From Treponema sp. (GTDB taxonomy: Bacteria > Spirochaetota > Spirochaetia > Treponematales > Treponemataceae), in assembly GCA_024682655.1 (NCBI GenBank), contig JAIKYZ010000027.1:1071-65070 (forward strand): DNA of 64,000 nt. Reading direction: 5' to 3'. The notes below the pieces were generated by a model, which worked only from the letters and a program-made list of their open reading frames with translations, ran no database searches and had not been told where the DNA came from. The stretch's first letter is position 1. Each line of letters opens with the position of its first letter. Below are positions 24,468 to 56,677 of the stretch, piece by piece. The translations under genes were made by a program, and so were the position numbers.

Positions 24468-25658
24468 TTATTTATCGCCAGGGTGTTTTCTATAGAAGGC
24501 AGCCTGTTTCATTAATTCAACAACATCTTTGATGAAAATCTTCTGATTTATAATCTTAATGTGATTGTCCTGCTGGAATTCATAAATTGCCTTAGCCTGA
24601 GCTTCGTGAGGAATACCACACAAATTAGCCAAGTCCTGACAAGAAAGATCACTCTGGTGCTGTTTATTAATAAGTGTATTAACATCGATATTTTTCTTTT
24701 CAAGTTGAAGAGAAAGCATATCAATCATTTTTGCTACTGGATTTGCAAGATTAGCATTATCAAGCTGACGGTACATTGACCACAGTCTTTCGGCTAAAGT
24801 AGTTGTAAGTTTGGCAACCAGCTGTGGTTGTGTTGCAACCATCTGATTAAAGTTTGCTCTGTTGATTACCATTAAATGACAATCTGTATGAGCAATGGCA
24901 CTAGCAGATCTTGGTTTGTTTTCCAATAAAGCCATTTCGCCAAACATATCTCCTTTGTGGAGAATTGCAAGGGTTACTTCGTTTCCATCTACAATTTTTG
25001 AAATAGAAACTTCTCCGCTTTGGATAATAAACATATCTGCACCTGGAGCTGATTCAGAGAAAATCATACAATCTTGTGGATATGAACGAGTCATTTCTGA
25101 ATTTGGTTCAAGATATACAGCATGTGTTTTTGGTTTTAAGAAAGCGAATTTCTTTTTAGCGTCTTCGGCATTTGGACCAACTGGTCTTGTCTTTAAATAT
25201 TGATAATATGCAAATACTGCAATATTGTGCTTTGAAGTTTTTTCGTAGAATCTTGCTACTTTATAAATCTGGTCGTAAGTTTCTGAAACAACTCCTTTTA
25301 AGGTTGCCTTTGTAAGCATTTCGTTCATTACACGCATGCGGTTTGCAAAGGTTTTAATTATTTTTAAAGCAACTGGAGTATTGTTTTTTATGAGATCTGG
25401 ATATTGTTCTTTTTTTACTGAGATTGCTACAACATCTGTCTTTGCGATGGCAGTTTCGATTTGAAGTCTGCCAGACATACAGGCAACTACACCAACGAAG
25501 TCTCCTGGTCCTAAAGCTACAGGAGTTGAACCACTGCCTGTTGCTTTGTAAGATTGAACAGAGCCTTGTTGAATAATATAAAAATGATCACTGTCTGATT
25601 TTCCTTCTACGACCAGATAAGCTCCAGGAGGAAAACGACTAATTTGTAACTGTAGCAC
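24468..25658 (-). CDS. Crp/Fnr-like protein with two cNMP-binding domains (GTG start)
   Basis: two cNMP folds, the second with canonical FGEMALLENKPRSASA; probable C-terminal HTH-like region; SD GAGG. Confidence 0.85.
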   Translation of the reverse strand: MLQLQISRFPPGAYLVVEGKSDSDHFYIIQQGSVQSYKATGSGSTPVALGPGDFVGVVACMSGRLQIETAIAKTDVVAISVKKEQYPDLIKNNTPVALKIIKTFANRMRVMNEMLTKATLKGVVSETYDQIYKVARFYEKTSKHNIAVFAYYQYLKTRPVGPNAEDAKKKFAFLKPKTHAVYLEPNSEMTRSYPQDCMIFSESAPGADMFIIQSGEVSISKIVDGNEVTLAILHKGDMFGEMALLENKPRSASAIAHTDCHLMVINRANFNQMVATQPQLVAKLTTTLAERLWSMYRQLDNANLANPVAKMIDMLSLQLEKKNIDVNTLINKQHQSDLSCQDLANLCGIPHEAQAKAIYEFQQDNHIKIINQKIFIKDVVELMKQAAFYRKHPGDK

Positions 25659-49349: not shown

Positions 49350-51269
49350 ATGAAGAAGCCGGGAGAAAAAAGGTTAACCTTTGCAGTTTGTGTTTCTGGT
49401 TATAACTGGGAATGGGATTATAGAATTATTAATGGAATTCTTCGTAAATGTCAGAAAAATGATGTAAATCTTTTAATTTTTAATTCTCTTATGCTTAAAG
49501 GAGATTTTCCAAAAGGAATTGAGATAACAAAAAATCTTGTCCGTGGAGAATCAGAAATCTTTAATCTTATCAATTATGATTTGGTTGATGGAGTTATTCT
49601 TTTAGGAGACTCTATTTATCGAAGAAAATCAATTCAAGAAATCTCTGATAAATGTGATTTACATAAAATTCCCTGTATAAACATAAATGACGTACGTACA
49701 AAACTTAAACATAATGTTTATTTGGAAAACACTCATGCAATGGAGCTGGTAGTTGACCATCTTGTAAAGGTGCATAATTGCAAGAGAATCAATTTTATTG
49801 GTGGATATCCTGATAACAAAGAAACAATTGAACGCCTAGCTGCCTATAAAAAAATCCTTACAGAAAATAATATTCCAATTCAGGAAGAAAGAATTGATTA
49901 TGGTCATTTCTGGAAACATTCTGTTGAATGTGTTGAAAAAATGCTTGAATTTGATGTTCCGGAAGCAATTGTTTGTGCCAATGATACAATGGCAGTCTTA
50001 ATTTCTGATTATCTTAAAAACCGGGGATTTAAAATTCCTCAGGATATTATTATTACCGGTTTTGATGGAATTAATGATGCTTTTGCCTATCATCCTACTA
50101 TTACAACCGTTTCTTCAGATTTTGAAAGTACAGGTGCTAGAACTTATGAAATGATGGAAGAACTGATAAAGGGTAATAAGGATATTGGAGATATTACAAT
50201 TCAATCAGAATTAATTATTCAGGAATCTTGTGGTTGTATGCACTTACAAAAGGAAGAGCATAATTTTATAGACAGCCGTTATAACGAAAAGAATTTCACC
50301 CTGGATTTTAATAAGAGACTGGTAAAGACAAATATTTATATTTCAGATTCCAATACTTCTGATGAAATTTATTATCATCTTCTGTCAGGTGCCGAATCTT
50401 TTGGTTTTAAGAGATTTACTTTCTGTCTAAATGCAGATTTGGAAAATAGCAGTAAGTTTTTCTTTAGTAATAATGACCAGAATAATTATGGAATAGCTAA
50501 AAATCTTTTTGAAGTATATTTGGATGAAAACAGTAAGGTATGCCGTAAGGATTTTGAAGCTTCGCAATTGTTGTCTTATGATTTCTTAAATGGTCCTGAG
50601 CCTGTTGTAATGACTTTTTCTCCTTTGTATTACAAGACCTATTTTTTGGGCTATATGGCCTTTGAACCTGTAAAACTAAAACTTGAAGTAGATGGGGATT
50701 ATTTCTTTCTTTATTCTTTACAGGCCGCAAATGAAATTCAGAGTTTTTATGTAAAAAGAGAACTGGAAATTATAAACAAAATAGATTATATGACCGGGCT
50801 TTATAATCGTCGTGGAATGGATAAAGTTTGCAAAGATATTTTAGACGAATTGAAATATGAAAAAAAGCATCTTTATATGCTCTGTGCCGATATAGATAAT
50901 CTAAAAATTATTAACGATAAATATGGCCACGAAGCAGGGGATAGTGCAATTATCCAGATAGCATCAGCAATTAAAAAGGTTTTTGCAGATTATGCCTGTA
51001 TTAGAACTGGTGGAGATGAATTCTGCATAATTATAAGTGAAGACAAAAAAATCAACGTTGAAAAGATGATTAAAAAGGTGGACGAGGAATTAAAAATTTA
51101 TAATAAAAACAGTCAGCTACCTTACAGTCTTTTATGTAGTTGTGGTTATTATTCTCTTGATTCAGATAAATTTATCAGTTTTGAAGATATGCAGAACAAG
51201 GCAGATAGGAATTTATACGAGGTAAAGGCAAAGCATCATCAGAAAAAATTATTTGCCCCAAAAATCTAG
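49350..51269 (+). CDS. diguanylate cyclase with LacI-type sugar-binding sensor domain
   Basis: PEAIVCANDTMA, ITGFDG, PTITTV sensor motifs; DYMTGLYNRR, NDKYGHEAGD, RTGGDEF. Confidence 0.9.
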   Translation: MKKPGEKRLTFAVCVSGYNWEWDYRIINGILRKCQKNDVNLLIFNSLMLKGDFPKGIEITKNLVRGESEIFNLINYDLVDGVILLGDSIYRRKSIQEISDKCDLHKIPCININDVRTKLKHNVYLENTHAMELVVDHLVKVHNCKRINFIGGYPDNKETIERLAAYKKILTENNIPIQEERIDYGHFWKHSVECVEKMLEFDVPEAIVCANDTMAVLISDYLKNRGFKIPQDIIITGFDGINDAFAYHPTITTVSSDFESTGARTYEMMEELIKGNKDIGDITIQSELIIQESCGCMHLQKEEHNFIDSRYNEKNFTLDFNKRLVKTNIYISDSNTSDEIYYHLLSGAESFGFKRFTFCLNADLENSSKFFFSNNDQNNYGIAKNLFEVYLDENSKVCRKDFEASQLLSYDFLNGPEPVVMTFSPLYYKTYFLGYMAFEPVKLKLEVDGDYFFLYSLQAANEIQSFYVKRELEIINKIDYMTGLYNRRGMDKVCKDILDELKYEKKHLYMLCADIDNLKIINDKYGHEAGDSAIIQIASAIKKVFADYACIRTGGDEFCIIISEDKKINVEKMIKKVDEELKIYNKNSQLPYSLLCSCGYYSLDSDKFISFEDMQNKADRNLYEVKAKHHQKKLFAPKI

Positions 51270-54491: not shown

Positions 54492-55331
54492 ATGGAAATC
54501 AAAGATTTTAGCGACAAGGTAGAATTTACCAATGATGGAAGGCTTTCTTTGTTTTTTGTGGGGACAGGATCAGCTTTTTCCAAGGAATTCTTTCAAAATA
54601 ATCTAATAATTGTAAAGGGAAAGGATCACATCTTGATTGACTGTGGAACTTTATTACCTTTTATATTAGAAGTTGCTTATCACACAAGTATATCTGAAAT
54701 AGAAAACGTTATTTTAACTCATCCACATGCAGACCATATTGGTGGAGTAGAAGAATTAATCTTAAACGGCAGATATGTTAAAAAATCTAAAATAAATATA
54801 ATTATAACCGACGAATTTAAAGAACTTTTGTGGGAACAAACTTTAAGGGGTGGTTGTCAGTATAGTGAAGACGGAAAAATGACTTTTGATGATTATTTTA
54901 ATCAGATTAAGCCTGCTGAAATTCCTGGAACTCCCTGGCCTATGTGGGAAGCAAATATTGGTTCTATAAATATTAAACTTTTCAGAAGTTTTCATGTTAC
55001 TACAATGCCTAATTCCTTTGAAAATTCACAGTTTTCTGTTGGTATGATTATTGATGATAGAATTTTATTCCCTGGCGATACTCAATTTAAGCCAGATCAG
55101 CTTGATTGGATTTTAAATCATTACAATATTGAATGTATTTTCCATGACTGCGATGTATCTGGTTTTAGCGAAGGAGTTCATGCTACTTATCAACAGTTAA
55201 AAACTCTTCCGGACGAGGTAAAGAAAAAAATGTATTTATGCCATTACAATAAAAGTGCCTGTAAAATCAATTCAAAGGCAGATGGATTTGCAGGTTTTGC
55301 TCGTAAAGGTAAGTATTATATTTTTGATTAA
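54492..55331 (+). CDS. MBL-fold metallohydrolase, Apyc1-like putative cyclic-nucleotide phosphodiesterase
   Basis: GTGSAFSK, LIDCG, THPHADHIGGVEE, FHV, GDT, FHDC, GVHA, LCHY. Confidence 0.8.
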   Translation: MEIKDFSDKVEFTNDGRLSLFFVGTGSAFSKEFFQNNLIIVKGKDHILIDCGTLLPFILEVAYHTSISEIENVILTHPHADHIGGVEELILNGRYVKKSKINIIITDEFKELLWEQTLRGGCQYSEDGKMTFDDYFNQIKPAEIPGTPWPMWEANIGSINIKLFRSFHVTTMPNSFENSQFSVGMIIDDRILFPGDTQFKPDQLDWILNHYNIECIFHDCDVSGFSEGVHATYQQLKTLPDEVKKKMYLCHYNKSACKINSKADGFAGFARKGKYYIFD

Positions 55332-55372
55332 TCAAAAATGGTAATAATAATTTAATAAAGATGGAGAAATAA

Positions 55373-56677
55373 ATGAAAAAAATTCTGATTGCATCTACAA
55401 ATGTTGGTGTAATTGATATTGTAAAAAGTGTCTGTAATAAATTTGCCTTATACTTTGATCCTATTTTTTGTCCTGATACAGAAGAAGCTTTAAGCTTTAT
55501 TGATTATGAAATTCCAGAAATTAAAATCCTTGATTTTACCAGTAGCACTATTGATTCTTTTAGGATTTTAAACGCAATCGATTCTGACCCTTGGCTTCAT
55601 AACGGTGGAATTATTGCAATTGTTAAAGATAAAAAAACTGTACAGGAATTTGAATCTAAGAAAAATCCTAATATCCTTGCAATTCAGGTAATTGAAGCTT
55701 TTAAAGAAAATTTTGAAAGACTTCTTAAGATTCTTTGGAATAATCAGCAGTTCCTTTTTAATCGAGGAATGCAGGAATCTATAAACGGTGTTGAAAAAGG
55801 AAAATTTATTTGTGGAAATGATCCTTTTGATATCCGAATGTATGCAAGTTTCCTGGTGAATTATTTATATTGTACAAACCGAATTGATGAAGATGGTCGT
55901 TATGCCCTTCAAACTACTTTTATGGAAATGCTTACAAACGCCCTTGAACACGGTAACTGTAATATTTCTTATGAAGAAAAAAGTAAGTGGTTGGAAAAGG
56001 GTGGAAATATTCTTGATTTAATTAAGGAAAAATCAAAAGACCCTGTGATTGGTGCTAAAAAAATCCACATTGAATATGTTATTGGAAAGGAAAAATCTAC
56101 TTTTACAATTACAGATGAAGGTGATGGTTTTGATTGGCGTTCAAGAGTTCAAAATGATGACTTTACAATGGAAACTCATGGACGTGGAATCTTTATGTCC
56201 AAAAATCTTGTTACAGGATTAACTTACAATGATAAGGGTAATCAAGTTTCTTTTGAAATACAAAATCTTATGAACGTTTCTAATAATGTTCCTTTGATTA
56301 TGTCTACCTTTGCAACTGTTCAATATACAAAACATCAGATTGTTTGCCGTCAGAATGAACCTTCAAATGATTTATTCTTTATTGTGTCGGGCCGATATGG
56401 AGTTTATGTGGATGGAAAATTACTTTCTGTTCTTACTCCAAAAGATATATTTATTGGCGAAATGGCCTTTCTTTTGAATGACCGTCGTTCAGCTACAATT
56501 ATGTCTGCTGGGCAGGGACAGTTGATTCGTATTCCTAAAGTTTCTTTCTTGAATCTTATTAGAAAAAATCCACACTATGGAATATTCCTTTCTAAACTTT
56601 TGGCTCAGAGAGTAACAAATCAAAATCGTAAAACAATTGAACTTTCCAACGAAATCCTGGAATTAAAAAATAAATAA
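55373..56677 (+). CDS. receiver-like + RsbW-type HATPase + cNMP-binding domain protein
   Basis: PEIKILD; EMLTNALEHGN, DEGDGFD, HGRGI, YNDKGN; FIGEMAFLLNDRRSAT. Confidence 0.85.
   Translation: MKKILIASTNVGVIDIVKSVCNKFALYFDPIFCPDTEEALSFIDYEIPEIKILDFTSSTIDSFRILNAIDSDPWLHNGGIIAIVKDKKTVQEFESKKNPNILAIQVIEAFKENFERLLKILWNNQQFLFNRGMQESINGVEKGKFICGNDPFDIRMYASFLVNYLYCTNRIDEDGRYALQTTFMEMLTNALEHGNCNISYEEKSKWLEKGGNILDLIKEKSKDPVIGAKKIHIEYVIGKEKSTFTITDEGDGFDWRSRVQNDDFTMETHGRGIFMSKNLVTGLTYNDKGNQVSFEIQNLMNVSNNVPLIMSTFATVQYTKHQIVCRQNEPSNDLFFIVSGRYGVYVDGKLLSVLTPKDIFIGEMAFLLNDRRSATIMSAGQGQLIRIPKVSFLNLIRKNPHYGIFLSKLLAQRVTNQNRKTIELSNEILELKNK

Follow-up and report, generated by a model that had tools for sequence, protein, structure and literature searches.

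The question raised by this locus is which input and which output are joined when a receiver-like domain, an RsbW-type GHKL ATPase, and a cyclic-nucleotide-binding (CNB) domain occur in a single polypeptide. The protein concerned is encoded in Treponema sp. (assembly GCA_024682655.1, contig JAIKYZ010000027.1), in a 64,000-nucleotide stretch that was analyzed as a whole and is referred to here as the window; its open reading frame (ORF) runs from ATG to stop over exactly 55373–56677 on the + strand and encodes 434 amino acids (aa). Judged from its sequence and a structure model, we consider it somewhat probable that this protein represents a cyclic AMP (cAMP)-gated RsbW-type STAS kinase/anti-σ switch. 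The protein and its homologues are referred to as the TP0995 family, after a Treponema pallidum protein described below. The features of the gene and its product are as follows, with residue numbers referring to the 434-aa protein:

55363–55366, + strand: Shine-Dalgarno sequence GGAG, 6 nt 5′ of the ATG, read from the sequence
55373–56677, + strand: whole ORF, predicted pseudo-receiver, then RsbW/LvrC-type GHKL, then CNB (Pfam and AlphaFold2)
55373–55741, + strand: residues 1–123, predicted (βα)5 pseudo-receiver (AlphaFold2 secondary structure, alignment column counts, comparison with canonical Rec-GHKL proteins, and Foldseek against LvrC)
55742–55792, + strand: residues 124–140, short linker with a low predicted local distance difference test (pLDDT) score, without a dimerization and histidine phosphotransfer (DHp) domain or His-box (conservation and AlphaFold2)
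55793–56263, + strand: residues 141–297, Bergerat-fold GHKL domain, HATPase_c_2 (Pfam and alignment with PDB entry 9qih)
55925–55957, + strand: residues 185–195, N-box EMLTNALEHGN (family alignment)
56114–56131, + strand: residues 248–253, G1 box DEGDGF (family alignment)
56177–56191, + strand: residues 269–273, G2 box HGRGI (family alignment)
56315–56569, + strand: residues 315–399, CNB β-barrel (Pfam PF00027 and Foldseek)
56456–56497, + strand: residues 362–375, phosphate-binding cassette GEMAFLLNDRRSAT (family conservation)
56570–56671, + strand: residues 400–433, long C-terminal helix (AlphaFold2 and conservation)

A preliminary description, made from the letters of the window, had proposed a three-domain protein, and this architecture was borne out, far above chance, by the ORF itself, by matches to PF13581 and PF00027 above the curated Pfam cut-offs, and by an AlphaFold2 model. 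The model was built on a 59-sequence family alignment with identity down to 24%, which also underlies all residue-conservation counts reported here. Three folded domains were obtained (mean pLDDT 91.1, predicted TM score 0.86), with the receiver-like domain at residues 2–123, a low-pLDDT linker at 130–140, GHKL at 141–297, CNB at 315–398, and a helix at 400–433. This 34-residue helix may represent the C-helix, or lid, of the CNB domain and is a candidate dimer interface; the coiled-coil end that had been proposed thus corresponds to a predicted helix, the last ~14 residues of which are lineage-specific.

The central domain presented a match to HATPase_c_2 (PF13581) at residues 155–294 (E 5e-11, 43.1 bits, cut-off 27.4), as compared to only 15 bits (cut-off 26.4) for the histidine-kinase profile HATPase_c. 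The N, G1, and G2 boxes previously read from the sequence are all present, and their key residues are invariant in the 59 sequences; these include E185, N189, E192, H193, and G194 in the N-box, D248, G250, G252, and F253 in the G1 box, G270 and G272 in HGRGI, and G289 in KGN. The ATP·Mg site is under strong purifying selection, and the invariant E185, which occupies the general-base position, together with a complete ATP lid suggests catalysis rather than mere binding. No HisKA or DHp match was found in the ORF with Pfam, and no conserved His was found in the family alignment in residues 107–150, between receiver α5 and the GHKL domain; with only a short, low-pLDDT linker in this region, the absence of a DHp domain and His-box, as originally noted, holds.

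Assignment of this domain to the RsbW/SpoIIAB type, which had also been proposed, agrees with the Pfam scores and with the best structural relative of the protein. PDB entry 9qih was the top Foldseek match in the PDB (E 1e-15, 304–307 columns over the receiver plus Bergerat domains) as well as the sole strong PDB sequence match to the GHKL part (phmmer E 2e-11). The sequence alignment with 9qih also covers an uncommon stretch that follows the N-box (NALEHGNCNISYEEKSKWL vs. NAIEHGFAGISYEHKASLL), where a helical insert of ~25–30 residues is common to the TP0995-family protein and 9qih; alignment with a small RsbW paralogue from the host genome shows a 29-residue gap at this insert. Entry 9QIH was deposited as “SenB” and represents LvrC (LIC11110) of Leptospira interrogans (Agustoni et al. 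2026, PMC13269768). The name “SenB” was also considered as that of the selenoneine glycosyltransferase; this was rejected, as the accession leads to LvrC. LvrC has been described as a “Rec-Bergerat” protein that receives a phosphoryl group from the histidine kinase LvrB and was crystallized with ADP·Mg, and its similarity to RsbW and SpoIIAB has led to the proposal that it is a Rec-regulated anti-σ factor (PMC13269768).

The N-terminal domain presented a CheY-like (βα)5 fold in the AlphaFold2 model, with strands at residues 2–7, 28–32, 50–54, 79–84, and 101–106 alternating with helices at residues 11–23, 36–46, 62–76, 87–96, and 107–123, and with block-mean pLDDT values of 83–97 across residues 1–120. 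Sequence matches to receivers in the PDB were weak (E 0.09–2), and no Response_reg (PF00072) match was found for the ORF at E ≤ 1 with Pfam. The preliminary description had recognized a receiver-like fold that lacks the acidic pair and keeps the Asp in PEIKILD; both observations stand, as the acidic-pair positions are occupied by Ser, Thr, or Asn across the family and the Asp in question (D54) is found in 44 of 59 sequences (Asn in 10, Glu in two). The degeneracy is, however, wider than had been described, with the receiver Thr/Ser of β4 and Lys of β5 also unconserved. Because acidic pair, Thr/Ser, and Lys are all unconserved, the N-terminal domain is, by its predicted active site, a pseudo-receiver, i.e., a receiver fold without phospho-acceptor chemistry. 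An alternative in which the domain still works as a receiver, so that a phosphorelay (as from LvrB to LvrC) is integrated with a cyclic-nucleotide signal, would be in keeping with the frequent retention of D54, with the clean fold, and with close relatives that are genuine Rec-GHKL response regulators, but the unconserved Mg-binding pair, Thr/Ser, and Lys, the Asn found at D54 in 10 sequences, and the missing PF00072 match make it very improbable.

Comparison of family members with and without a CNB domain points to another possible role for the pseudo-receiver. A DPWL motif at residues 72–75 is family-specific and nearly invariant (D72 and W74 at least 90% conserved); it was found in seven of the eight CNB-bearing members displayed, the eighth presenting DKWL, and in none of the CNB-less relatives compared. 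DPWL thus tracks the CNB domain, suggesting a role in communication between the receiver and CNB domains. Three CNB-less relatives (P0261, P0264, and P0269) carry a bona fide Response_reg domain (92–101 bits) with the DD, D, T or S, and KP residues intact; in the other CNB-less relatives, the N-terminal domain was invisible to Pfam. In a tree of the Rec plus GHKL regions of CNB-bearing and CNB-less relatives, 21 of 37 branches were open and the backbone was not resolved, with the trio of canonical-Rec proteins as the sole monophyletic group (100/98). CNB-less proteins with a pseudo-receiver interleaved with CNB-bearing ones, suggesting truncated gene calls or secondary losses.

At the C-terminus, residues 316–399 matched cNMP_binding (PF00027; E 7e-18, 64.8 bits, cut-off 27.5). 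The intact cassette reported in the preliminary description is retained across the family in both its Gly-Glu and its Arg-x-Ala-Thr elements, with G362 and E363 at least 90% conserved, R372, A374, and T375 conserved at 70–89%, and S373 variable; the site for the cyclic nucleoside monophosphate (cNMP) is under strong purifying selection. Foldseek against the PDB matched the domain to the cAMP- or cyclic GMP (cGMP)-bound CNB domains of MtbCRP, CAP, GlxR, PKG, PycTIR, and SthK, with root-mean-square deviations of 1.5–2.6 Å. In bacteria, many domains with the CNB fold respond to signals other than cNMP (Kannan et al. 2007, PMC2246266), and this, together with the variable S373, would be consistent with a domain of the CooA, FNR, or NtcA type that binds another ligand or none and serves as a dimerization or regulatory scaffold. 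We regard such a domain as very improbable here, since G362, E363, R372, A374, and T375, the residues for phosphate and ribose binding, are conserved family-wide, while the G/E/R/A/T positions of the cassette are degenerate in CNB families that do not bind cNMP (PMC2246266); the abundance of cyclases in the host genome also argues against it.

In the host genome, which comprises 2.74 Mb in 151 contigs, 10 class III cyclase domains were found, along with nine CNB domains in about seven proteins. The substrate of class III cyclases follows a rule of Lys/Asp versus Glu/Cys. The residue that specifies the substrate lies two positions ahead of the (I/E/L)GD motif; it is the ATP-specifying Lys in eight of the 10 domains and Ser in one, one domain was degenerate, and none presented the Glu of guanylate cyclases; this distribution makes cAMP the likeliest messenger. 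Assignment of ligand specificity from the cassette alone was rejected, because RSAT occurs both in the cGMP-specific PKG and in the cAMP-binding CRP. The two atypical cyclase domains are found at C73:33369–33959 (- strand), with Ser at the substrate-specifying position (VGSIIGD), and at C58:5104–5622 (+ strand), a probably inactive domain in which the metal-binding GD motif is missing (SKFLSGG). A second cNMP receptor is encoded in the window at 24468–25658 (- strand), as a 396-aa protein with tandem CNB domains (PF00027, 90 and 60 bits). We know of no cAMP receptor identified in spirochaetes. A role for cAMP in light-driven motility control has been described in Leptospira (PMC9043183).

The TP0995 family is conserved across Spirochaetota. 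A word-indexed search yielded 1,248 homologues, of which the best 120 all contained PF13581 plus PF00027; the named homologues among these 120 were annotated in Treponema or Treponemataceae as “cyclic nucleotide-binding domain-containing protein.” When 1.84 billion cluster representatives were searched exhaustively, ~100 clusters (50% identity) with the full-length architecture were identified, down to ~25% identity, and at least 580 loci with a relative were found in a collection of species-representative genomes. The best 80 of these loci came from Treponema, Treponemataceae, Spirochaetaceae, Rectinemataceae, Gracilinema, Alkalispirochaeta, Salinispira, and Leptospirales, along with a few metagenome-assembled genomes (MAGs) labelled Riflebacteria/Ozemobacteraceae, Planctomycetota, Chitinispirillaceae, or Desulfovibrionaceae. 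Within the Treponemataceae, a TP0995-family gene was found in 78 of 121 genomes and in 13 of 24 genera, one of which carries a second paralogue (33–40% identical).

The family extends to the agent of syphilis. A complete T. pallidum-type genome of 1,139,633 bp (G024) encodes a 446-aa orthologue at ~1.081 Mb that is 44% identical over its full length and has every motif intact. In T. pallidum strain Chicago, TP0995 is listed at 1080774–1082108 as a 444-aa “cyclic nucleotide binding protein” (PMC3373638) and is the probable orthologue of the ORF described here, sharing the same three domains and all motifs. It differs in being known by annotation alone, with the GHKL and pseudo-receiver domains absent from its name; annotation of the family thus dates back to the first T. 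pallidum genome, although it covers the CNB domain alone. No functional study of TP0995 was found in a literature search.

Candidate partners for an RsbW-type protein are present in the host genome, which encodes five STAS proteins, six PP2C phosphatases, and seven matches to the σ70 family. Only two host proteins matched PF13581 above the cut-off, namely the protein described here and a 184-aa RsbW-like protein. The latter is encoded in a classical cluster (C29:6950–9565, - strand) with a membrane PP2C protein (557 aa) and a STAS protein (112 aa) with a DSSG phospho-site, and counterparts of this small RsbW, at 74–83% identity, occur in 12 Treponema genomes from five genera, out of 13 others compared. 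The small RsbW was not found in G024 by a direct protein search, which gave not even a first-look candidate; in a six-frame PF13581 scan of G024, even the TP0995-family orthologue did not pass E 0.001. In this reduced genome, era takes the place of the small RsbW gene behind the canonical DSSG STAS gene, and three STAS proteins, including the canonical one, are retained along with the TP0995-family orthologue. The absence of the small RsbW would leave the TP0995-family protein as the sole RsbW-type GHKL protein available there, and this pattern of gene retention, the most telling evidence obtained, provides circumstantial support for a STAS-directed role. G024 encodes three or four CNB proteins in total, and a 424-aa tandem-CNB protein is also found there at ~98 kb.

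The remaining STAS proteins of the host fall outside the C29 cluster. Two paralogous proteins of 183–184 aa (C13:32661–33215, - strand, and C60:5414–5965, + strand) carry a C-terminal CxxC…CxxC zinc-ribbon and an SSTG or TSTG phospho-site, with no kinase or phosphatase gene nearby; this STAS–zinc-ribbon family was found in 117 of 121 Treponemataceae genomes, including G024 (at ~242 kb). A third protein, with DPAG in place of a phosphorylatable Ser, is encoded beside two large membrane PP2C proteins (840 and 464 aa) and no kinase (C131:872–5115, - strand), a module that apparently cannot use STAS phosphorylation. The STAS domain on C148 is part of a SulP transporter.

Several observations weigh against a cAMP-gated STAS kinase/anti-σ switch. 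With respect to the output, no STAS, PP2C, RsbW, or σ gene was found as a conserved neighbor of the family within ±4 kb in the best 80 loci (phmmer with the STAS, PP2C, and RsbW proteins of the host), the STAS–zinc-ribbon proteins also occur in the 43 genomes without a TP0995-family gene, and the anti-σ role of LvrC is itself proposed, without an identified σ partner. With respect to the input, the best single-domain match of the CNB domain among PDB sequences, at 39 bits, was PycTIR, a Pycsar effector, and a resemblance is also seen between the cassette and that of the cGMP-specific Plasmodium PKG. The occurrence of the zinc-ribbon proteins in 117 of 121 genomes means that the phyletic profile neither ties these STAS proteins to the TP0995 family nor contradicts such a link. 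The sole linked partner gene among the 80 loci is a PP2C gene of the SpoIIE type 48 bp downstream of a homologue in a Leptospiraceae MAG (L093:7077–8393), which possibly represents a lineage-specific operon linking the family to partner switching.

The main alternative is that the protein is a cNMP-regulated, ATP-dependent binding switch rather than a STAS kinase; ATP would then serve the GHKL domain solely as a conformational cofactor for holding and releasing a σ factor or another non-STAS target, or else a different substrate would be phosphorylated. Such a switch would fit the 80 loci without a STAS neighbor, the independent profile of the zinc-ribbon proteins, and the closest relative LvrC, for which σ sequestration has been proposed and STAS phosphorylation has not been demonstrated; in addition, the canonical STAS gene is paired in most Treponema with its own small, highly conserved RsbW. 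We nevertheless consider this alternative rather unlikely. The persistence of three STAS proteins in G024 without another RsbW-type GHKL protein argues that the TP0995-family protein services them, and the invariant E185 and complete ATP lid suggest catalysis.

For the cAMP-gated RsbW-type kinase/anti-σ switch, the following mechanism can be proposed, in which ligand identity, kinase or anti-σ activity, targets, and allosteric route are all inferred. The protein would be a cytoplasmic, probably dimeric switch of the RsbW/SpoIIAB/LvrC type, with dimerization mediated by the β1/α1 elements of the GHKL domain (as in LvrC, RsbW, and SpoIIAB) and possibly by the C-helix of the CNB domain (as in CRP). 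The Bergerat-fold GHKL domain is predicted to bind ATP·Mg and would most likely phosphorylate a STAS-domain antagonist and/or sequester a partner, for example a σ factor. Binding of a cyclic nucleotide (most likely cAMP) to the C-terminal CNB domain would reposition the long C-helix, as in the generic CNB mechanism, and thereby alter the arrangement of the GHKL dimer; the altered dimer may then switch partner binding or kinase activity, i.e., STAS phosphorylation or binding versus holding of a σ-type partner. The pseudo-receiver is probably a structural or dimerization module, and DPWL may communicate with the CNB domain. In this scheme, the phosphorylation input of LvrC-like Rec-Bergerat proteins would be replaced by a cNMP input. 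A broader proposal, which we put forward tentatively and with more doubt than confidence, is that the TP0995 family represents an unrecognized class in which cAMP input replaces phosphorylation, the pseudo-receiver and DPWL relay the state of the CNB domain to the GHKL domain, and the reduced genome of the syphilis spirochaete retains this protein as its sole RsbW-type switch.

The gene immediately upstream raises the possibility of a different system, as it encodes a putative cNMP-degrading enzyme:

54492–55331, + strand: gene for an Apyc1-family MBL-fold cyclic-mononucleotide phosphodiesterase (PF23023, 106.7 bits vs. cut-off 50)

This gene, encoding a 279-aa MBL-fold protein, is preceded on the same strand by genes for a phosphoribosyl pyrophosphate (PRPP) synthetase, an FGGY-like kinase, and an HAD hydrolase, while convergent housekeeping genes (formate–tetrahydrofolate ligase, deoxycytidine monophosphate deaminase, pseudouridine synthase, and citrate synthase) are found 3′ of the ORF. 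The gap between the PF23023 gene and the ORF is 41 bp and contains no terminator; a scan for promoters and terminators gave no more than expected from shuffled sequence. Further upstream (49350–51269, + strand), a GGDEF diguanylate cyclase is encoded, the N-terminal sensor of which resembles LacI-type periplasmic binding proteins; relative to the syntenic locus L030, its gene is inserted between those for transketolase and PRPP synthetase.

The short gap, the shared strand, and the match to PycTIR would be consistent with a cNMP eraser paired with a cNMP-gated effector, possibly a Pycsar-type defense system using a cyclic pyrimidine. The distribution of the two genes largely refutes such a system, which we consider extremely improbable. 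Of 121 Treponemataceae genomes, 48 carried a member of the PF23023 family, spread over 11 of 24 genera; the 14 control genomes carried none. Among the 121 genomes, 28 carried both genes, 50 only the TP0995-family gene, 20 only the phosphodiesterase gene, and 23 neither, whereas about 31 genomes would be expected to carry both if the genes were independent. The two genes were adjacent in only two of the 28 genomes (G000 and G027, from the same genus) and lay within 2 kb in two others (G100 and G080), and were otherwise on other contigs or 65–168 kb apart. Of the loci of three other lineages that were inspected, P0103 and P0075 are without the phosphodiesterase gene and P0035 has it 7.5 kb away on the opposite strand; G024 does not encode it, and the TP0995-family gene, moreover, lies in a housekeeping neighborhood and shows vertical conservation throughout the phylum. 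With no excess of co-occurrence and with adjacency rare, the phosphodiesterase and the CNB-bearing kinase were rejected as a conserved system, and the upstream gene is not a conserved partner; the PF23023 protein probably serves these spirochaetes as a housekeeping cNMP phosphodiesterase. Clustering of conserved neighbors at the best 80 loci likewise yielded no family shared by more than 15 loci, the families found being generic throughout (ABC ATPase, DEAD helicase, NFACT, and rpsD). The ORF is thus a stand-alone signaling gene.

Partner-switching systems composed of RsbW/SpoIIAB, STAS, and PP2C proteins are usually fed by phosphatase-side sensors or stressosomes. If the cAMP-gated switch proposed here is correct, direct reading of a second messenger by a kinase/anti-σ subunit would represent a new input route for partner switching. 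The family is phylum-wide, has hundreds of species-level representatives, and survives genome reduction in a T. pallidum-type genome. Gene regulation in the syphilis spirochaete is very poorly understood, and cAMP would, if the proposal is correct, be a direct controller of both STAS phosphorylation and σ-factor availability in this organism. The importance of these findings is tempered by the fact that shuffling of CNB modules among proteins is common and that the function proposed here is inferred. The structure of LvrC provides a direct structural template, so that the hypothesis can be tested with recombinant protein.

Among known systems, LvrC represents the closest parallel. In both of these spirochaete proteins, a DHp-less Bergerat/HATPase_c_2 domain comes after a (βα)5 receiver fold, and both share an NA(I/L)EHG…ISYE(E/H)K segment in addition to the helical insert after the N-box; identity is, however, only ~20% over the structural alignment. 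The LvrC receiver is canonical and phosphorylatable (D53, Y-T switch) and is fed by LvrB, whereas that of the TP0995 family is degenerate; LvrC also lacks a CNB domain, and the input of the TP0995 family is presumably a cyclic nucleotide rather than a phosphoryl group. RsbW and SpoIIAB resemble the TP0995-family protein in their PF13581 match above the cut-off, in their N, G1, and G2 boxes, and in being without a DHp domain, and the host genome encodes the STAS and PP2C proteins with which such kinases work. They differ in being single-domain proteins of ~140–160 aa that are encoded beside STAS and σ genes, whereas the TP0995-family protein has two additional domains, an insert of ~29 residues, and no linked partner genes.

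A CNB domain fused to a HisK-like ATPase was catalogued as an uncharacterized architecture in a census of CNB domains (Kannan et al. 2007, PMC2246266). This “HisK” family presents a similar cassette consensus (GELSLLTGGPRSATVRA; PMC2246266) but the opposite domain order, and the ATPase of the TP0995 family is of the RsbW type with a pseudo-receiver in front. CRP/CAP, PKA-R/PKG, and SthK share the CNB β-barrel with an intact cassette and a C-helix. The outputs attached to the CNB domain in proteins of the CRP, PKG, SthK, and Bd1971 types are a DNA-binding domain, a eukaryotic-type kinase, a channel, and an EAL domain, respectively, whereas the predicted output of the TP0995 family is a GHKL kinase/anti-σ module. 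Bd1971, reportedly a cAMP-sensing EAL phosphodiesterase, is an earlier example of direct control of a bacterial enzyme by a CNB domain fused to it. A literature search found no paper on the function of the Rec-GHKL-CNB architecture, in agreement with the earlier view that such an input had not been characterized for this family; the family itself was not unseen, given the long-standing annotation of TP0995. The protein is best called a Rec-Bergerat/RsbW-type switch with a presumed cyclic-nucleotide input, the parts of which are known from the systems above and the combination of which appears to be new.

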